Source: Patescibacteria group bacterium
GTDB lineage: Bacteria; Patescibacteriota; Minisyncoccia; Phycocordibacterales; UBA1006
Direction: 5' to 3'
Assembly: GCA_028286885.1 (NCBI GenBank)
Contig: JAQBQS010000016.1
Span: 2,809 to 66,808, forward strand
Length of the DNA: 64,000 bases
Position numbers and translations under genes: made by a program. Below, in pieces: positions 934 to 23,279 of this stretch. Numbering within the stretch: position 1 is the stretch's first letter; the number at the start of each line of letters is the position of its first letter. The notes beneath the pieces are model-generated. The model made no database searches and was not told where the DNA came from. It was given only the letters and a program-made list of their open reading frames with translations.

Positions 934-2599
934 CAGTAAGAGATTTCTCGTCTAGTTTTTCTTCATTTATCTTGAAAATGAAGGTCAGTTTTGGTGTTCG
1001 ACTAACTATTTCTTCGTATGTCGGAAACTCTTCGAAGAAGAGGCTATAAAGTGTGATCTGTTCTCGCTTATTCTCAATGTTTTCAAGTATTTTTGTAGGG
1101 TGTTCCATTAAATCTTTTGTATTTTTTATAAATTCGTGAATTTGGTCTTCGTTGATATCGAGCTTGTTTCTTTCGTTTTGTGCCCGACTCAGTTCAATAT
1201 GGATACTCTCATACTCCTTTTCGAGGTCGGCTTTTACGATTGGAGAATTTGCAGCTTCAATTGCTCTAAGTTTCAACTGTTTTTGTTCTTTTATTTCGAG
1301 AATGCGCTTGCTTATAAAGTTTGATTTGTCAGCAACAGTACCTTCTTCTCGGCGATATTTATAAACTAAAGCCCTCTCAATTATCGAGATAAATTCATCA
1401 GTAAACTTAATAGTTGCAAGGAAATTATTGAAAGTATCCTCGGCTTCCTTTCGAGGAAAGGCATATCTTTCGTGTTTTCTAGAACAATGATACGCAGGAT
1501 ATTTGTTTCCTAATTTTCCTGTCGAAAAACTTCCCAAAAGTGGTTTGCCACAGAGCGGGCATTTTAAGATATTTTTAAAAGGGAAGTCGGGTCGGAAATC
1601 ATGTCTTTTGTCCAAGAATTTTTCAAGCTTTTGGTCATAAAGAATTTCAAACCTATTTTCTCCAAGAGAATTTATGTAGACCTTGCCACGATTGGCTTTA
1701 TTAAAAATATCCATTGAAACAATCCCATTCCATTTTCCTTTAATAGGAAGGTAGTTTGTCCATTTTTCACAAACTATTCCGCAGTAAATTGGTCTTGTTA
1801 TTATTCTTTGGAGAGTTTTAACTGTAAGTCCGAGCGATTCCGTCTTTCCTGTAATTTTTGTTTTTGAATTATTCCATTTCTTGCGAACTTTTGATTTAAA
1901 TCCCATTGCGTTTATCTTCGAAACAATTTCCTCATCAGAGTAAATACCCTCCGCACGAAGTCTAAACATTTCAGAATAGTATTTACTTCTCTCGGGATCA
2001 GGTTCAAGAATGTATCGTTTCTTCATATCAACGTCCACCTTTTTTGAAACATATCCGTCGTTGGCTGGTCCCATATGATAACCGTCCCTCACCAAAAGAA
2101 TTTGTGCCTCGATAAGCTGTCGAAGGATTCTCTTTCGATCCATTTCCGATCGTTTGACTTCCATTAGCTCGCTCGCCTCGCTTGGGCTTTCTGTAGACCA
2201 CTCATACTTTAAATTATATTTATCAAAGTGGTTTTTTTCTGCCTGAATGATACCAGTAACATCTCGTAATTCAGTTCCGTGTTTTAGTAGTTCCGATTTG
2301 ATCTCGTAATAATTGTCTACTTTTCCGCGTGTCATTCGACTGATTATGCGAATAATAAGGAACTTAACTTTCCCGGGATTGTCCTTTAAAATTTGGATTA
2401 TTTCGTTGTAAACAGGGCGTGATTTTGTTTTTCCGCTAAAAGGCTCCTCGAATACTTTGTTATCAGGGAATAGTGTATATCCGTTGCGGTCGCAGTAATT
2501 TCTTATATCTTGCTCCTGTCCTGCAAGACTATCGCCGCCGACTGCTTGTTTTGCAGTGCTTACGCGCGCATATCCAATTACATAAATTGGCTCATTCAT
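908..2599 (-). CDS. large serine recombinase (integrase); its 3' end overlaps the tRNA-Gly 3' end by 26 nt
   Basis: N-terminal resolvase catalytic motif YARVSTAKQ, recombinase domain, Cys-rich zinc-ribbon CPLCGKPL...YHCSRKH, C-terminal coiled-coil; 563 aa. Confidence 0.85.
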   Translation of the reverse strand: MNEPIYVIGYARVSTAKQAVGGDSLAGQEQDIRNYCDRNGYTLFPDNKVFEEPFSGKTKSRPVYNEIIQILKDNPGKVKFLIIRIISRMTRGKVDNYYEIKSELLKHGTELRDVTGIIQAEKNHFDKYNLKYEWSTESPSEASELMEVKRSEMDRKRILRQLIEAQILLVRDGYHMGPANDGYVSKKVDVDMKKRYILEPDPERSKYYSEMFRLRAEGIYSDEEIVSKINAMGFKSKVRKKWNNSKTKITGKTESLGLTVKTLQRIITRPIYCGIVCEKWTNYLPIKGKWNGIVSMDIFNKANRGKVYINSLGENRFEILYDQKLEKFLDKRHDFRPDFPFKNILKCPLCGKPLLGSFSTGKLGNKYPAYHCSRKHERYAFPRKEAEDTFNNFLATIKFTDEFISIIERALVYKYRREEGTVADKSNFISKRILEIKEQKQLKLRAIEAANSPIVKADLEKEYESIHIELSRAQNERNKLDINEDQIHEFIKNTKDLMEHPTKILENIENKREQITLYSLFFEEFPTYEEIVSRTPKLTFIFKINEEKLDEKSLTVRRQGIEP

Positions 2600-2808
2600 A
2601 AATCTATTTTAACATTATCCGTTTGTTTTGACTCATTTTCAAACCAAATTTTATAAGCTGTATTAACAAATATCATAGAAGCTTCATAAATTTTTTGTAC
2701 CTGAAAATCTGAGAACTTTTTCAGCTCCTCATGAGTAAGTACATTCTTTTTGAATTCTTCCAAGCTCATTATTTTGAGATTAAAATCGAGATAACAAAAA
2801 CGCCCCAA
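2596..2808 (-). CDS. small hypothetical protein, translationally coupled upstream of the recombinase (possible directionality factor)
   Basis: 70-aa ORF overlapping the recombinase start by 4 nt (ATGA); no recognizable motif. Confidence 0.3.
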   Translation of the reverse strand: MGRFCYLDFNLKIMSLEEFKKNVLTHEELKKFSDFQVQKIYEASMIFVNTAYKIWFENESKQTDNVKIDL

Positions 2809-3210
2809 TATAAGGGCTTTTTGTAAGCAAATTACCTGTTCGTAGAAATACGTAGAATTGGTAATTAACTAGGCAAAAAGCCTAACGAATTACCAACTCG
2901 ACGCATTTATTTATCCTGAAGTAAACATATCGTAACTTGTAGATTCATCGGAGATCTCTAGTGTTTTTTAGCCACTTTCTAACTTTTTCTAACCTCCAAA
3001 TGAAACAGGATGAGACATAATCAGGGTAAAATGCAATGTTGATCCGTTTTCTCGATATGATCGCTCCCTGCAATAGTTTTTCGAGAAAACTTTATTAAAT
3101 TATCTGGGGCAATGAACTGACTGACTTTATTATAGCAGTTGTTTTGAAAAAATCACCTCCTAGACATTACAGGATTAAAATAGTACGCTTTCTAACATAA
3201 CCTAATAAAA

Positions 3211-3358
3211 GTAGCCTAAACTCGTCTAACGGCGAGCATGGTGAAAGCAATGTCCAGTCAGACATAAAAAACCCATCATATGGGGTTTGTCTGACTGGCT
3301 GCATTTGGAAACGAATGCAGAGGGCGAAAGTCCTCAACCTATGTGGTGGGCTTTTTGT
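3211..3358 (+). ncRNA. conserved structured RNA motif, copy A (unidentified family)
   Basis: ~88% identical to 23134-23279. Stems CCAGTCAGACA/TGTCTGACTGG and TGCATT/AATGCA are replaced in copy B by CCAGTAAAGAT/ATCTTTACTGG and GTATC/GATAC (compensatory). Invariant hairpin CCCATCATATGGG, GGGC-GAAA-G(t/c)(c/t)C tetraloop hairpin, ends GGGCTTTTTG. Confidence 0.6.
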
Positions 3359-3389
3359 ATCTCATTTATTAGAACAGTCAGACTAATTT

Positions 3390-6934: not shown

Positions 6935-7710
6935 TGAAACGAATATTCACTCCCTACGAACTCGCGCAACTGGCGAAACACACGATTACGGATTTTGACT
7001 TGGAAAAAATTTCAAAAGGACTCGGCGAAACGTTTTTGGATATTCCCGTTGAATACATAACAGGATTCTGCGAGTTTCGGAAACATGATTTCCAAGTAAG
7101 CCGCGATACCCTGATTCCGAGAATAGAAACGGAAGAAATGATTGATATCGGATTAGAATGCGCAGCGGGTATTCTTGAAAAAAACATCGACAAGAAAACA
7201 ATCGCGTTTGCGGATATCGGAACAGGATCGGGAATTATTGGAATTTCATTCGCAAACGAACTGTCCGAGAAGGGAATCATCACCAAAGGCACTCTGTCGG
7301 ATATTTCGCCAAATGCGCTCGAAATTGCAAAGCAAAACGCAAAGCGCATTCTTGGCGAGGAAAACGATCTCGCATTTTTGGAATCGAATTTGCTCGAGAA
7401 TTTTCCAGTCTCGAAATTTGATATTGTGTTCGCAAATTTACCCTACATTCCATCTGGGAATATGAAGGGCTTGGATTCCTCGGTGAAAGACTTTGAGCCT
7501 GTATCGGCACTCGACGGCGGACCCGACGGATTGGACTTGGTCAGGAAGCTCCTACAGCAGGCTCCTGCATTCTTGAACCAAGATGGCATCGTGATTTTAG
7601 AAGTCGATGATTCGCATCTTGATGCAACTGAATTCTTGGAGAACTTTCATGTCGAGATTAGAAAGGATCAGTTTGGAAACAACCGGTTTTGGATCTTGAA
7701 ATTAAAATAA
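6934..7710 (+). CDS. prmC: release factor glutamine N5-methyltransferase PrmC/HemK
   Basis: SAM-binding DIGTGSGIIGIS and catalytic NLPY(IP) = NPPY-type motif; 258 aa. Confidence 0.7.
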   Translation: MKRIFTPYELAQLAKHTITDFDLEKISKGLGETFLDIPVEYITGFCEFRKHDFQVSRDTLIPRIETEEMIDIGLECAAGILEKNIDKKTIAFADIGTGSGIIGISFANELSEKGIITKGTLSDISPNALEIAKQNAKRILGEENDLAFLESNLLENFPVSKFDIVFANLPYIPSGNMKGLDSSVKDFEPVSALDGGPDGLDLVRKLLQQAPAFLNQDGIVILEVDDSHLDATEFLENFHVEIRKDQFGNNRFWILKLK

Positions 7711-9392: not shown

Positions 9393-10169
9393 TTATTGCG
9401 CCTGATTCCATGCGATATCAAACAGCATGCGCATGAACATGGCGATGGATCTGTTGGTAATAATGACTGAATGAAGCCCTTTGTCCCAAACAGTAAGCGC
9501 GACATGGTCCGTCCAAACGGACATTTGCAAGTTGGAATTGAAAATCGCCTTGGGGAGGGCGCGCACTTCGCGGAATTTGATGCGCGCTTCGAGGCGTTCG
9601 TCATCAATATCTGGAAATTCAGGCAAGAGAAGTTTTGTTTTGATTTTCCGTTTGATACGAAGCTCGCGATACTCCTTGAGCCTGTCGCGCGCAACCGTAA
9701 ACCGCTCGGGGTCTCCCGACATGCGCAGTACCTCGCCGCCTTTTTCCTGATCAAGGGATTTCATGAAAACCTTAACAAATCCGTCCTCTCCTTCCAAATG
9801 CTCGATGTCGATCTTTTCGGATTCGCCGCGCAATGCAAACAGGCTGCGCAGTTCCGGCATGACGAGTTCGAGCTCGGACACCTTTTTTCTCGTTTCGAGT
9901 TCCTCATGCTCGAGGAACTTCCGTATCTTTTCAGGATTTTCGACATAGAACACGCGGCGTTTGCCGGAAGCTGTTACGCCAAGAACGCCGCGTTCAACAA
10001 GGCTTTCAACAGCAAGGTGAATAGTCGAGCGGGGGAGTTTTACGCCGCCTGCAATCGCGGCAATGCTCGAGATTCCATTTTGGAACAAGAAAAATACTGC
10101 CTGAATTTGAGCCGAGTCCATGCCGATATTCTTGAGTGACGACTTCAATTGTTTCGGTATTTCGATCAT
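9393..10169 (-). CDS. TrmB-family transcriptional regulator
   Basis: N-terminal wHTH ...QIQAVFFLFQNGISSIAAIAGGVKLPRSTIHLAVESLVERGVL... followed by a TrmB-like C-terminal domain. Confidence 0.55.
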   Translation of the reverse strand: MIEIPKQLKSSLKNIGMDSAQIQAVFFLFQNGISSIAAIAGGVKLPRSTIHLAVESLVERGVLGVTASGKRRVFYVENPEKIRKFLEHEELETRKKVSELELVMPELRSLFALRGESEKIDIEHLEGEDGFVKVFMKSLDQEKGGEVLRMSGDPERFTVARDRLKEYRELRIKRKIKTKLLLPEFPDIDDERLEARIKFREVRALPKAIFNSNLQMSVWTDHVALTVWDKGLHSVIITNRSIAMFMRMLFDIAWNQAQ

Positions 10170-10427
10170 GAAACAAGATTATCACAAGTAGTTTGAAATG
10201 ACAAATTTTTATGACACTTTGTACAAAAAACTATAAAAACCAATGAAATTGCCATTTTTACAGAAATAGGTATCAAAATTACTTGTCAAAACTATTGACT
10301 TTTGTTTGCGCGCGTGATACAATGCTTGCAGGAAGATAAGAAATAATTCTTCGAGTTCTTTCAAATCCGCGAGATTGCATCCCATTCTCGAAAGGACCGT
10401 TCCCGATATCATAACGTTTGGTGGTAT

Positions 10428-10810
10428 TTGGAACAGTCCTTTCGAGGAAATATTAATAAGCGGCAGCGACTATCTGCCAGGGTCCCCGTGCTGAAGCGAT
10501 TTGACTTCAGGGCGGGGGTAATAACTTGGAGATCCCCATCCAGGAATCAGACACTTAACGTAAGTTCCTCTGACCAACCAATCTGGCGGGCAAAAAACCA
10601 TTCTGCGGGAACAGAATGCCAACTCTATAGACAAGGTTACAACCCCTACGTTAAATGAGTTAAAGTTTTTATGTACAGAGCCGCGTTTCTCGGCTCGTCC
10701 TTCCTTCATGTTCCTAACCGGGCGCAGGGACATGAGGGGCGTGATTAGGTCACGCAAGAAGGGAAGATCTTTGCATTGCATTTGCAAAGGAAGAAAATGC
10801 GCGTAATAGG
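10428..10810. other. unassigned GC-richer noncoding region with extensive hairpin potential
   Basis: No convincing ORF (10470-10859 minus ORF looks spurious); several stems e.g. GGGAGAGGT...ACCTCTCCC (10808-10866); RNase P, tmRNA and SRP consensus elements were looked for and not found. Confidence 0.3.
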
Positions 10811-10866
10811 GAGAGGTCTGGCAAAGGGGGCCTAGAGGGTCATCCTGAGGACCGGACACCTCTCCC

Positions 10867-10906
10867 TTTCTATCAGGATCTCGAAGAAATTCGAGGTTCT
10901 GTAGAA
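10867..10906 (+). promoter_or_regulatory. repeated intergenic motif copy 1 (TATCAGGATCTCGAA-loop-TTCGAGGTTCTGTAGAAA)
   Basis: Follows the terminator-like hairpin 10808-10866; internal hairpin CTCGAA-GAAA-TTCGAG; 25 nt upstream of gene 10931. Confidence 0.5.
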
Positions 10907-10930
10907 ATTATTCTTTCAAAAAATATAAAG

Positions 10931-11305
10931 ATGTGCGCATGTAAAAGTCACGAGAATAAGAATGTGAAAATTGAAAAATTTACAATTATTCATCATTCAA
11001 AAACTTTTATTATGCAAAACATGTTAGTTGTTACAGCCGCGGTGGGCAGCTTTTTTTACGAGGGACATGATGATCCGAAGACATTTTTCCTAAGCGTAAA
11101 ACCTGGTGATTCTTCGGAAGAGCTTGTTTCTACGGTAGTGGAAAAGTTGTATCGAGTTTTTCGCCCAGAGGATCTTTCCTTCGGGAATGGCTTCGTTGGG
11201 ATAATCCACGACCTCGATCCCCAGGGCGGCCTGATTCGAGAAATCGAACAGAAGTTTAAAGAGCGTTTGGGTAGGGACGAGATCACCGTTCAGGTGAATG
11301 GGTAA
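10931..11305 (+). CDS. hypothetical protein
   Basis: 124-aa ORF directly downstream of motif copy 1. Confidence 0.35.
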   Translation: MCACKSHENKNVKIEKFTIIHHSKTFIMQNMLVVTAAVGSFFYEGHDDPKTFFLSVKPGDSSEELVSTVVEKLYRVFRPEDLSFGNGFVGIIHDLDPQGGLIREIEQKFKERLGRDEITVQVNG

Positions 11306-11334
11306 TACCAAGTATTGGCGAGAGTTTCTCGCCA

Positions 11335-11376
11335 TTTTTATCAGAGTCTTGAATTTAATTCGAGGTTCTGCAGAAA
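11335..11376 (+). promoter_or_regulatory. repeated intergenic motif copy 2 (TATCAGAGTCTTGAA-loop-TTCGAGGTTCTGCAGAAA)
   Basis: Follows hairpin GGCGAGAGTTTCTCGCC + T-run; stem CTTGAAT/ATTCGAG. Confidence 0.5.
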
Positions 11377-11476
11377 GCACATTCAAACAAAATATAAATA
11401 TACGTGCTGTTGTATCCATGCAAAATTATCTATTCAAAGAGTTGGAATAGAAAAAAACAAAACAAAATTTTGCAAG

Positions 11477-11989
11477 ATGGAAAAAACAGTATCACGACGT
11501 TGTTCGCTTAGGTATTGCAATTCCTCGGTAGTGAGCTCACTTCAAGTGATCCACTACGGTGCCAGCAGGTTTGAGTTTTCAAAGTTTAATCCCATTGCGA
11601 ACCACTTCGGTACGTATGGAATTAAACCGAGAAGCGGCGGTCTTTGGACCTCGCCGGTTAACTCAAATCATTCCTGGAGAGGTTTCTGCGAAGGTGAAGA
11701 TTTCAATCTTCATACCTTGAGTTCGTCTTTTCGCCTCTCGTTTCATGGTTGCGCCAAAATCGCAATCATTGACTCGTACGGGGACTTGGAGAACCTTCCG
11801 ATGAGGAGTTTTCCAAAGTCGATGGCTGAAACCGATGTCGATTGGGAGCTTGTTGCTCGCAATGCAGACGCGGTTTGGCTTACGGCGAAAGGCGAGACGA
11901 GGACGAGGCTTTCGGCCCCGTACTTGTTGAACGGATGGGACTGCGAAACAGTTCTCATCATGAATCCGAATTGCTTCTACCTCGTGTAG
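11477..11989 (+). CDS. hypothetical protein (start moved downstream of motif copy 2)
   Basis: ORF 11315-11989; the first ATG after the motif is at 11477 (MEKTVSRR...); no recognized domain. Confidence 0.3.
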   Translation: MEKTVSRRCSLRYCNSSVVSSLQVIHYGASRFEFSKFNPIANHFGTYGIKPRSGGLWTSPVNSNHSWRGFCEGEDFNLHTLSSSFRLSFHGCAKIAIIDSYGDLENLPMRSFPKSMAETDVDWELVARNADAVWLTAKGETRTRLSAPYLLNGWDCETVLIMNPNCFYLV

Positions 11990-12005
11990 AGCAGTTTGTA
12001 TTCAT

Positions 12006-12026
12006 AGGACAAGGAAACTTGTCCTC
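12006..12026 (+). terminator. terminator hairpin preceding motif copy 3
   Basis: AGGACAAGgaaaCTTGTCCT followed by CTTTA. Confidence 0.45.
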
Positions 12027-12066
12027 TTTATCAGGATCTTGAACACGTTCGAGGTTCTGTAGGGAA
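12024..12066 (+). promoter_or_regulatory. repeated intergenic motif copy 3 (TATCAGGATCTTGAA-loop-TTCGAGGTTCTGTAGGGA)
   Basis: Same conserved flanks as copies 1 and 2; stem CTTGAAC/GTTCGAG. Confidence 0.5.
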
Positions 12067-12094
12067 TATTTGATCACCTAAAAATAAATAACGT

Positions 12095-12301
12095 ATGATA
12101 GCTGATATTTTTGACGAACTGCTTGCAAAAATTACTCCCCAGGAAAGTTGGACGGTAAAAAAGTGGTTTATGCACCGCTACGGAGAAAAAGGCTGCATCA
12201 GGAGAACTAAGACGAGACGCATATCTCTCTTTCGTCCGAACGGCCCGAAGGCGAGGAAGAGAAAGTACCCGCAAGGCCATCATCCGGAAGATATCTTTTA
12301 G
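12095..12301 (+). CDS. small basic hypothetical protein
   Basis: 68-aa ORF downstream of motif copy 3. Confidence 0.25.
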   Translation: MIADIFDELLAKITPQESWTVKKWFMHRYGEKGCIRRTKTRRISLFRPNGPKARKRKYPQGHHPEDIF

Positions 12302-12346
12302 TTTAAGTAAACATACGCAAAGAGCGGTCTCTAAAGACCGCTCTTT

Positions 12347-13879
12347 TTATCTCGCATATTCAATCACTCTATTCTCCCGAATCACCGTTACCTTGATTTC
12401 TCCTGGATAGCGGAGCTCCTGTTCGATGCGGATCGCCATGTTGCGAGCCGTTTCGCGCGCCTGCATGTCGGTTAGGACATCGGGGCTTACGAAGACGCGG
12501 ATTTCGCGGCCGGCTTGGAGGGCGAATGATTTCTCGACGCCTGCAAACGTGTTGACGACTGATTCGAGTTCGCGCAAACGCTTCAAGTAATTCTCGAGCG
12601 TATCGCGGCGCGCGCCCGGGCGTGCGCCTGAAATCTGGTCGCAGACCTGGACGATGACGGCCTCGACGGTTTCGTGCGGCCAGTCATCGTGGTGCGATTT
12701 CATGGCGGTGATGACGCGCGGATCAACGCCGAACTTTTCCAAGATGCGGATGCCGATTTCGATATGCGTCCCTTCAACTTCATGATCCAAAGCTTTCCCG
12801 ATGTCATGGACGAGTCCGGCAATCTTGGCGACCACGGGATCAGCTCCGAGTTCTGTTGCGAGCATCTCGGCCAAATGGGCAACCTCGAGCGAGTGCTGCA
12901 GAACATTTTGTCCGTATGACGTTCGATATTTCAATCGTCCCAAGATGGCGATGACGCGCGGATCCAAGGTATAGATTCCGCATTCGTGAACGGCATCTTC
13001 GCCCGCCTTCTTGACCATCTCATTGATTTCGGATTTTGCCTTCTCGAAGAATTCTTCGATTTTTGCAGGTTGGATGCGTCCGTCCTTGATTAGGTTTTCC
13101 AAGGTTACGCGCGCAACCTGGCGGCGGATCGGATCAAATGAGGAGATAATGATTTCATCAGGCGACTCATCAATAATGAGCTCGACGCCGGTGATTCGCT
13201 CGAACGTTCGGATGTTGCGGCCTTCGCGTCCGATGATTTTTCCTTTGACATCGTCTGATTCGATTTCGACTGACGTTGTCGTCATCTCGTGAGCGGTTGA
13301 ACTCGCGAGGCGCTGGATGGAATTTACCAAGATTTCACGCGCGCGGGATTTGTATTTTTCCTCGCCTGTGATTTCAAGTTTTCGGAGCCTTACCAAGATG
13401 TCCTCCGAGTATTTCGCCTCGGCATCTGCAACGAGAAGATCGCGCGCCTCTTCTCGGGTCATGCCGGCGAGCTTGATGAAATCGGATTCCTGCTTTGCCA
13501 AGTTCTCCGTCGCCTTTTCCTTCAGGATCTGAACCTCGGCAACTTTCTTTTTCAGGTCTTCGTATTCGCGGTCGACATCTGATTGGCGGGCATCGAGCGT
13601 CTTTTCCTTGTTCACCAAAAAGTCGCGCGTTTTCTTGAACTCGGTTTCATGGTCTCGTTCGATGTGGCGGAGCTCGTCGGTTCGCGATAGGGCGCGGCGT
13701 TCAGCATCTTCGACAATGCGCGTCGCGTCTTCGCGTGCGCGGAGCATCAATTCTTTGACGTTGGTCTCGAGGCTTCGCTTCTGGAATCGTGCGACGATTT
13801 TGCGGATGAAGTATCCGAGAAACCCGCCGATGACAAGCGCCGCAAAACATGCGGCAAGGGCAATAATATAGTGGCTCAT
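12347..13879 (-). CDS. rny: ribonuclease Y
   Basis: N-terminal TM helix, long coiled-coil, KH domain (GKIIGREGRNIRTFE) and HD domain (HSLEVAHLAEML...VHDIGKA); 510 aa. Confidence 0.85.
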   Translation of the reverse strand: MSHYIIALAACFAALVIGGFLGYFIRKIVARFQKRSLETNVKELMLRAREDATRIVEDAERRALSRTDELRHIERDHETEFKKTRDFLVNKEKTLDARQSDVDREYEDLKKKVAEVQILKEKATENLAKQESDFIKLAGMTREEARDLLVADAEAKYSEDILVRLRKLEITGEEKYKSRAREILVNSIQRLASSTAHEMTTTSVEIESDDVKGKIIGREGRNIRTFERITGVELIIDESPDEIIISSFDPIRRQVARVTLENLIKDGRIQPAKIEEFFEKAKSEINEMVKKAGEDAVHECGIYTLDPRVIAILGRLKYRTSYGQNVLQHSLEVAHLAEMLATELGADPVVAKIAGLVHDIGKALDHEVEGTHIEIGIRILEKFGVDPRVITAMKSHHDDWPHETVEAVIVQVCDQISGARPGARRDTLENYLKRLRELESVVNTFAGVEKSFALQAGREIRVFVSPDVLTDMQARETARNMAIRIEQELRYPGEIKVTVIRENRVIEYAR

Positions 13880-23133: not shown

Positions 23134-23279
23134 GTAGCCTAAACTCTTGAGTGATCGAGAGCATGGTGAAATAAACCCAGTAAAGATTAAAAAACCCATC
23201 ATATGGGGCTATCTTTACTGGTCGTATCTGGAAACGGATACGGAGGGCGAAAGCTCTCACCTATGTGGTGGGCTTTTTG
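23134..23279 (+). ncRNA. conserved structured RNA motif, copy B
   Basis: See copy A (3211-3358); compensatory stem substitutions; ends GGGCTTTTTG. Confidence 0.6.

Follow-up and report, generated by a model that had tools for sequence, protein, structure and literature searches.

Among the closest described systems, RiboJ-type synthetic insulators consist of a hammerhead plus a hairpin upstream of the ribosome-binding site. The RNase III signals of the T7 early region such as R1.1, associated with the work of Dunn and Studier, are reportedly hairpins of about 20 bp with upper and lower stems and an unpaired element, and are said to lie between genes. Clustered type III hammerheads that flank single genes, in arrays of bacteria and prophages (Perreault et al. 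2011), have been taken to imply processing of long transcripts (PMC3088659), and association with hammerheads led to twister-sister, pistol and hatchet (PMC6765202). The boxA sequence shields long untranslated transcripts from Rho (PMC7665894), and GYTCTTTAANA is the published boxA search pattern for NusB/NusE sites (PMC5725501). Here we describe an RNA hairpin, P2, which follows a second hairpin, P1, in each of three cassettes between small genes in 64,000 nucleotides of DNA (the window) from a Patescibacteria group bacterium (contig JAQBQS010000016.1, positions 2,809 to 66,808). The reading that we favour, with belief and doubt about equally weighted, is that the cassettes are RNA junction modules within one long transcript, P2 probably being a protein-dependent cleavage site. 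In its working P2 would be comparable to clustered hammerheads and to RNase III signals of the T7 type, and there is a resemblance to boxB-boxA, but neither its sequence nor the defining features tested make it a member of any of them.

Like the T7 signals, P2 is a split hairpin of about 20 bp between the genes of a presumed polycistronic transcript, where cleavage would leave a protective 3′ hairpin on the upstream RNA. The T7 sites differ in having an asymmetric internal loop, in place of which P2 has a single invariant bulged U, and in forming no sequence family conserved across hosts; P2 has the extra hairpin P1, and is a candidate cleavage site only. The layout of RiboJ-type insulators recurs in relatives of the window in the order ribozyme or P2, box, hairpin and start codon, but these modules are natural and their cleaving part is mostly replaced by a non-catalytic hairpin. 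With clustered type III hammerheads P2 shares slot, arrays and strand, a hairpin before it, a box and gene after it, and the implied role of cutting a long transcript into units; P2 lacks the catalytic core, however, and is therefore not cleaved by the hammerhead mechanism. In the boxB-boxA of rRNA operons, lambda nut and CRISPR boxA (PMC5725501, PMC7665894, PMC3177189), likewise, a sequence of the GYUCUUUAA type directly follows a hairpin, both at the start and in the interior of long transcripts that are largely untranslated. P2, in contrast, stands at every junction, is a much longer hairpin conserved in sequence, and has no good boxA beside its window copies.

The P2 hairpin and its family

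Three copies of a hairpin-plus-box cassette between consecutive small genes had been noticed in the original prediction, and they proved real. The pattern ATCAGRRTCTYGAA-N(2-6)-TTCGAGGTTCTGYAG matches the window three times (10872-10904, 11340-11373 and 12030-12062), always on the + strand, none of 100 dinucleotide shuffles yields a match, and a GC hairpin precedes each copy. With filters off, a covariance model run over the whole 64 kb returned only the three P2 copies, at 55-62 bits; the next-best match, at 21.6 bits, is the reverse strand of copy 1. The copies were also said to lie just 5′ of the next + strand open reading frame (ORF), and the measured distances to the ORFs at 10931, 11477 and 12095 are 21-98 nt. 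A dispersed repeat of the REP or MITE kind would be distributed differently: all three copies fall within 1.2 kb, none lies elsewhere in the 64 kb, and the copies of relatives cluster in one array. The hairpins of the window are as follows.

10865-10909, + strand: P2 copy 1 (61.1 bits; bulged U at 10873; upper stem 10874-10885/10890-10901; loop GAAA)
11333-11378, + strand: P2 copy 2 (55.5 bits; upper stem 11342-11370)
12023-12067, + strand: P2 copy 3 (61.6 bits; upper stem 12032-12059)
10808-10867, + strand: P1 of copy 1, a long GC-rich hairpin abutting P2 (24 pairs, -33 kcal/mol)
11316-11334, + strand: P1 of copy 2, a GC hairpin abutting P2
12006-12025, + strand: P1 of copy 3, a GC hairpin abutting P2

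On the + strand each copy folds as two abutting hairpins, a GC-rich P1 of variable sequence with a purine-rich 5′ arm, then the conserved P2. In P2, a loop closes the 12-bp upper stem (CAGGAUCUCGAA/UUCGAGGUUCUG), below which come one bulged U and then a 6-8-bp basal stem in which YCUUUA pairs with UAGARA. Fold energies of the window copies are -54.8, -27.5 and -29.2 kcal/mol on the + strand (z = -5.7, -4.7, -4.8), versus -38.2, -18.8 and -15.7 kcal/mol on the - strand. An inverted repeat had thus been rightly seen in each copy, though its extent is not 6 bp but 12 bp plus the 6-8 bp below the bulge. The T-run after the GC hairpin, earlier read as the tract of a terminator, is rather the 5′ strand of the P2 basal stem, which pairs with TAGARA.

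Searches for relatives of the element gave a family set of 37 distinct copies in 17 loci after removal of duplicates. In a scan of species-representative genomes the motif occurred only in Patescibacteria metagenome-assembled genomes (Saccharibacteria, Nomurabacteria, Paceibacterota), and one metagenome scan added 26 further contigs that carry it. The family is restricted to Patescibacteria among the collections scanned. Viral contigs scanned with the full degenerate pattern gave no matches; a 15-mer scan of viral contigs returned chance single matches only, with YGAA a few bases upstream of the match in only 2 of 91 loci, neither of which resembles the full motif, and a viral origin was set aside. 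Each locus holds one to seven copies (two to seven in most loci longer than about 4 kb), always in one orientation.

A model-fitted alignment of the 37 copies has 92.5% of its cells in pairs, with changes on both sides in 14 of the 20 pairs, values reached by none of 500 shuffles; slid controls were 37-55% paired. The search patterns had partly selected for pairing in the upper stem, which holds 362 Watson-Crick pairs, 76 G-U pairs, one A-C and one other non-pair. The basal stem was not used for selection and still switches among C-G, U-A and A-U, its six inner pairs including 37 G-U against 7 non-pairs of any kind. The bulged U is kept in every copy and the base pairs that flank it are invariant. 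Loop length varies from 3 to 10 nt, almost every copy has an upper stem of 12 bp, and P1 abuts P2 in 35 of the 37 (median P1 energy -13.2 kcal/mol). The presence of G-U without A-C, together with the variable spacing of the arms, fits P2 being a sense-strand RNA hairpin and not a site for a dimeric protein on duplex DNA.

Rfam returned nothing on the element in gathering or E-value mode (10150-12400 at E<=10, and the whole window). Literature searches on the motif, on Saccharibacteria promoters and on hammerheads of the candidate phyla radiation found no description of it, and a paper search with the box sequence found primers only. P2 is thus a conserved, previously undescribed RNA motif that neither Rfam nor the searched literature contains; its likeness to the published GNCGAAN(0-1)G motif (PMC4201824), compared when a Y RNA or Ro60 site was considered, is loose only. 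A conserved peptide across P2 was rejected, as the variable loop length would shift the reading frame.

Hammerheads and boxA-like sequences in the same arrays

In relatives, P2 copies stand at the junctions of co-directional arrays of small genes and non-coding RNAs. Type III hammerheads occur in 8 of the 17 loci, all on the array strand (E-value Rfam searches plus a core-motif scan), and the loci so counted are L092 (with two), L096, L099/L100, L102, L104, L108, L119 and L122. Positions are given on the locus named.

L092 3020-3075: type III hammerhead
L092 7111-7166: type III hammerhead
L096 5757-5811, - strand: type III hammerhead
L102 2716-2770, - strand: type III hammerhead
L099 7165-7219: type III hammerhead
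L100 3702-3756: type III hammerhead
L100 about 2150-2185: type III hammerhead
L104 418-472, - strand: type III hammerhead
L108 796-850: type III hammerhead
L119 1131-1186: type III hammerhead
L122 6583-6647: type III hammerhead

The hammerhead of L092 at 7111-7166 sits in the usual P2 slot, with a GC hairpin before it and GTTCTTTGAAAAAG and a long hairpin directly after it. By eye, nearly all of the hammerheads are preceded by a hairpin, GC-rich in most cases, and the sequence that follows is a GTTCTTT box or a one-base variant in 6 of 9, with looser variants in the other 3. One downstream unit can be preceded by either P2 or a hammerhead, because in L092 the box plus the hairpin P3 that follows it is 91% identical over 65 nt between the unit behind a P2 copy and that behind the hammerhead; L119 repeats the pattern. 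Hammerheads need transcription through the junction, and therefore P1 would not be a complete stop and the arrays would be multi-unit transcripts. Their position directly 3′ of P1-equivalent hairpins likewise argues for at least partial read-through. Head promoters, co-orientation and the same-slot hammerheads together support placing P2 inside a polycistronic transcript, between its units.

P2 itself has no hammerhead core (CUGANGA...GAAA): Rfam reports none at E<=10, and no nucleotides lie between the 3′ strands of the upper and basal stems. A view of P2 as a hammerhead minus its core was rejected on further grounds, as an A-U pair stands beside the bulge where U16.1 is needed and CUGUAGA is an invalid core. 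Twister, twister-sister, pistol, hatchet, HDV-like and glmS ribozymes gave no Rfam covariance-model match in 10150-12400 or in the window.

The second recurrent companion of P2 is the box (U)GUUCUUU(R)AAA, found after 25 of the 37 copies, mostly 1-5 nt past the stem and in some as far as 32-41 nt. The G and the C inside the box are each kept in 24 of these 25. Most relatives carry a boxA-like GYUCUUURA behind the slot. The shorter GYTCTTTRA, which fits the published boxA pattern, occurs 29 times on the array strand versus once antisense, where 2.15 are expected. A boxA-like sequence also lies about 40 nt past head promoters, in the window (10365-10375), L107, L092 and L122. The published boxA pattern derives from gamma-proteobacteria, and the identification made here rests on that pattern. 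With this in view, the boxA-like RNA GUUCUUUCAAA is a candidate NusB/S10 site, we infer that the box binds NusB/NusE, and the GYUCUUURAA sites suggest Nus-factor antitermination of non-ribosomal arrays. An alternative fold or pseudoknot in which the GUUCUUU box pairs with the P1 5′ arm was inconsistent across copies and was discarded.

Readings of the junction modules

The favoured reading draws on the following features of the window array.

10295-10323, + strand: sigma-70-type promoter at the array head (TTGACT-17-TACAAT with TG extension; 10/12 consensus matches)
10365-10375, + strand: boxA-like sequence GTTCTTTCAAA, about 35-40 nt past the predicted transcription start, with one mismatch to GYTCTTTAANA
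10330-10867, + strand: leader/non-coding RNA of about 540 nt without a credible ORF, its 3′ end being P1 of copy 1
10931-11305, + strand: ORF1, 124 aa, no family match, start codon uncertain
11415-11481, + strand: P3 long hairpin between P2 copy 2 and the ORF2 start codon (z = -2.6)
11477-11989, + strand: ORF2, 170 aa, a hypothetical-protein family with 41 homologues
12095-12301, + strand: ORF3, 68 aa, basic, no family match
12319-12346: plain hairpin terminator closing the array, no P2 after it (covariance model negative)

Transcription would start at the head promoter, pass the boxA-like sequence, where the transcript may load Nus factors, cross the non-coding RNA and the three ORFs in turn, P1 being read through, and end at the closing terminator. 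At each junction the nascent RNA would fold with P1 stacked directly on P2, and P2 would be recognised by an endoribonuclease, with an RNase III-type enzyme as the best guess from geometry or else a structure-specific enzyme that cuts at or near the bulge. Cutting would release the units from one another; the upstream RNA would then end in P1, a 3′ hairpin that protects it, and the downstream RNA would have a structured 5′ end. In relatives a self-cleaving type III hammerhead would do the same job in the same slot, and the boxA-like Nus-factor site after the slot would help polymerase through long untranslated stretches. About two turns of double-stranded RNA split by an unpaired element, as in an RNase III signal, are indeed present in P2 (12 bp, the bulged U and 6-8 bp, covarying). 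The plain terminator after ORF3 indicates in addition that P2 accompanies those junctions that have a downstream unit.

Several observations weigh against this reading. Cleavage at P2 is argued by positional analogy with the hammerhead, and the window itself contains no hammerhead in an Rfam search of its whole length. The hammerheads of relatives score 30-46 bits, all under the Rfam gathering score of 48.5; the matches are nevertheless full length, with intact CUGAUGAG...CGAAA cores and valid cleavage triplets. The invariant pairs flanking the bulge and the conservation of sequence across phyla exceed what a generic RNase III site needs. P1 plus the pyrimidine run resembles an intrinsic terminator, one of the three (copy 2) being flagged by a terminator scan, which would point to separate transcription units. 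The window box is degenerate after copy 1 (ATTCTTTCAAA; given also as ATTCTTTC) and absent after copies 2 and 3. Lastly, a processing role leaves the strong linkage to a TrmB-like gene, described below, unexplained.

P2 could instead be the hairpin half of a repeated nut-like antitermination signal that loads Nus factors or an antiterminator past P1-type terminators and Rho, with no cleavage at all, which we consider unlikely. The frequency of the boxA-like sequence after P2, its usual distance of 1-5 nt from the stem, its strong strand bias and its recurrence past head promoters are what such a signal would predict. Set against these, P2 is fully conserved in the window where two copies have no recognisable boxA and the third has a degenerate one, so that conservation of P2 is independent of the box. 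The spacing of up to 32-41 nt in some copies does not suit the model either, and a hammerhead whose core is maintained, which implies selection for cleavage, replaces P2 in the same slot.

In the reading of the original prediction, P1 terminates the previous gene, P2 plus the box is a promoter or operator palindrome for a TrmB-like regulator, and each gene is its own unit. We regard this as improbable. The features on which it bears are these.

9393-10169, - strand: TrmB-like winged-helix regulator gene, 258 aa, divergent from the array
10196-10216: motif AAATGACAAAT-N4-ATGACA, kept in four type-A loci (window, L092, L096, L107) and unlike P2

The element is non-random and reiterated as had been proposed, and 12 of the 17 loci have a TrmB-like gene no more than a few kb away. 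The regulator matches Pfam TrmB weakly (21.2 bits; cut-off 25.6). Its orthologues, 49-70% identical, hold the same position in L096, L092 and L107, where the element is present as well, so that its absence from orthologous loci, named beforehand as grounds for refutation, was not found; a second, type-B group of TrmB-like paralogues lies upstream of arrays in other loci. In favour of the operator reading are this linkage, the terminator-like P1, and the position of the GTTCTTT box 6-9 nt 5′ of downstream hairpins and 17-35 nt 5′ of start codons, which is -10-like. A duplex operator would, however, keep its half-sites at a fixed spacing and show no strand preference of G/T versus A/C deviations; instead the loop varies widely, the arms and basal stem covary, and G-U outnumbers A-C by 76 to 1. 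As to a promoter at each junction, promoters were seen at array heads in 8-9 loci, and a scan of the window junctions found none comparable to the head promoter. The box lacks the -10 consensus, having T and not A at the second position, it also stands 3′ of canonical promoters, inside the transcript, and hammerheads 5′ of it would be pointless if transcription began there. TrmB binding to the P2 box is countered by the region between the TrmB-like gene and the array promoter, where the same four loci share motifs of a different kind: AAATGACAAAT-N4-ATGACA and other conserved blocks beside it are better candidate operators for the regulator than P2. A sigma-70 promoter inside P2 plus box was ruled out for want of a consistent -35/-10 pair and by varying spacings, and a LexA box (GAAC-N4-GTTC) in the tail, read by eye, by inconsistent spacing.

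Equally improbable, in our estimate, is that P1 and P2 form a tandem intrinsic terminator or attenuator, in which P2 plus the U-rich GUUCUUU stops most transcription and read-through is regulated. An attenuator RNA had been the alternative suggestion of the original prediction, which in this was right about the RNA level. The long P2 hairpin with a U-rich tract within 1-5 nt, and the GC-rich P1 followed by a pyrimidine run, have the look of terminators. Yet the G and C in the U-tract are nearly invariant, which fits a specific site and not just any run of U; P2 has an AU/GU-rich base, poor for termination; no alternative antiterminator pairing was found; and a hammerhead occupies the same slot. 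The abutting P1 hairpin has as its tract YCUUUAU, with 3-5 U, which is the covarying 5′ strand of P2, and only copy 2 passes the scan. The claim that P1 terminates the previous gene is therefore at best partly true, since hammerheads downstream of it need read-through.

Still less probable, we think, is the proposal that P2, singly or jointly with P1, acts as a new small ribozyme that cleaves itself, or else that it is a mark resembling a tRNA minihelix, which RNase P cuts at the bulged U. A broader version is also improbable: P2, which has its invariant bulged U exactly 12 bp under the loop and stacks on P1, would be a novel cleavage mark, either a minimal RNA that cleaves itself or a minihelix mimic for RNase P or Z. 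Association with hammerheads in arrays is the criterion that found twister-sister, pistol and hatchet. The bulged U and its flanking pairs are invariant, the bulge is topologically at the hammerhead's cut position, and 12 bp is the length of an acceptor plus T-arm helix. Against this, nearly all conserved positions lie in ordinary pairs, with no internal loop, junction or conserved loop to form an active site, the loop is not T-loop-like, no CCA is present, and leader and trailer are paired with each other, normally an obstacle to RNase P.

Least credible is that the P2 repeats are recombination sites, either attC-like folded single strands or homology tracts, that shuffle cassettes in a hotspot beside rny: like integron attC they are hairpins of imperfect pairing, with one base outside the helix and a loop that varies, after each of serial unrelated small genes, cargo differs while flanks are conserved, and L092 modules share a left or right flank with other modules, but the attC R′′/R′ cores (RYYYAAC...GTTRRRY) are absent from the P2 consensus, it is the sense strand that pairs, neither a recombinase nor an integrase was noticed in the loci, though no systematic recombinase search and no integrase search was made, and the hammerheads and boxA in the same slots indicate an RNA function, of which shuffling by homologous recombination could be a by-product.

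The window array and its relatives

The head promoter of the window is kept in L092, L096 and L107, and canonical sigma-70 promoters occur at the heads of arrays in 8-9 loci. In type-B loci (L097, L102, L099, L122, L094) the promoter is of a CTTGACA-17/18-TATAAT-like form, a few hundred nt 5′ of the first module where checked and about 500-700 nt 3′ of the TrmB-like gene, with a terminator before it and a conserved GGAACAUUGAAA after it. The leader at 10330-10867 is likely a new non-coding RNA. It has no Rfam match, and its 5′ hairpin domain at 10387-10446 (CUCGAAAGGA...UCCUUUCGAG, z = -4.75) is kept with compensatory changes in L092, L107, L111, L093 and L096. In L093 and L111, a P2-box module precedes the leader-type 5′ hairpin domain. 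Homology of the leader to the long gap 5′ of the motif in L097 was looked for and not found.

Hairpins comparable to the window P3 come after the box in relatives. They begin 6-9 nt past it, have conserved arms UUGGUUA/UAACCAA and end just before the start codon.

L092 5760-5815: P3 hairpin
L092 2210-2265: P3 hairpin
L092 7181-7232: P3 hairpin
L094, - strand, near 120-175: P3 hairpin
L119 290-345: P3 hairpin

Comparison of L092 5698-5742, 6312-6356 and 4682-4726 reveals modules that share either the left flank (P1 plus upstream) or the right flank (box plus downstream), a mosaic that suggests recombination within P2.

The gene calls of relatives are crude ORF maps, and among the cargo they list, a CxxC protein and a small basic protein recur. 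Homology of ORF3 to the recurrent 52-55-aa basic protein of L092/L102 was not found. Three ORF2 homologues from other taxa were looked up (L123, L124, L125), and all lie among small-gene arrays. Two of the three loci hold phage early genes (Cro, ERF, NinG and Tad2-like in one; Phage_rep_O and S24 repressor in the other), the third having unannotated small genes only, and neither P2 nor a hammerhead was found in any of the three. This hints that the array cargo consists of phage-derived accessory genes.

A gene for Ro60 (TROVE plus vWA) stands directly 3′ of modules in two loci and is present in a third.

L102 4819-6420, - strand: Ro60
L097 about 2066-3376, - strand: Ro60
L095 5931-7481, - strand: Ro60

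No known Y RNAs were detected near the Ro60 genes. P2 as a Y RNA or Ro60 site, an idea prompted by the Ro60 genes after the motif in L097 and L102, was dropped for lack of YrlA/Y RNA matches and because most copies are not beside Ro60. A functional link may exist between Ro60 and hammerhead products, whose ends are 5′-OH and cyclic phosphate, where both occur in one array.

The neighbour at the end of the window array, convergent with it, is the gene for RNase Y.

12347-13879, - strand: rny (RNase Y), with Pfam RNase_Y_N, KH and HD

It adjoins the array end in five loci (window, L093, L095, L096, L102) at 51-84% protein identity, its orientation in relatives being read from match coordinates and the ORF map. 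HU lies near the array in the window, L102 and L094. As cargo varies among loci and the flanks (TrmB-like gene, rny) are conserved, the array resembles a variable island whose place on the chromosome is conserved. Elsewhere in the window, Rfam gave two strong matches to LOOT RNA, at 3213-3335 and 23136-23258 (+ strand), of 81 and 93 bits.

Patescibacteria make up a large share of bacterial diversity, yet the control of their gene expression is almost uncharted. Small accessory genes and non-coding RNAs appear to be strung together in these arrays behind a single promoter that serves them all, hairpins or ribozymes standing between them and a boxA in the style of rRNA operons accompanying them. 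The P2 family can now be annotated by covariance model. P2 also offers a starting point for finding a nuclease or binding protein whose structural target is defined, as well as a source of natural insulator parts. Should the tRNA-minihelix mimic prove true, transcripts of accessory genes in these ultra-small bacteria would be punctuated in much the way that tRNAs mark mitochondrial ones, hammerheads and hairpins being interchangeable. A slot that holds either a hammerhead or P2 is, in itself, a natural experiment on what bacterial hammerheads are for.

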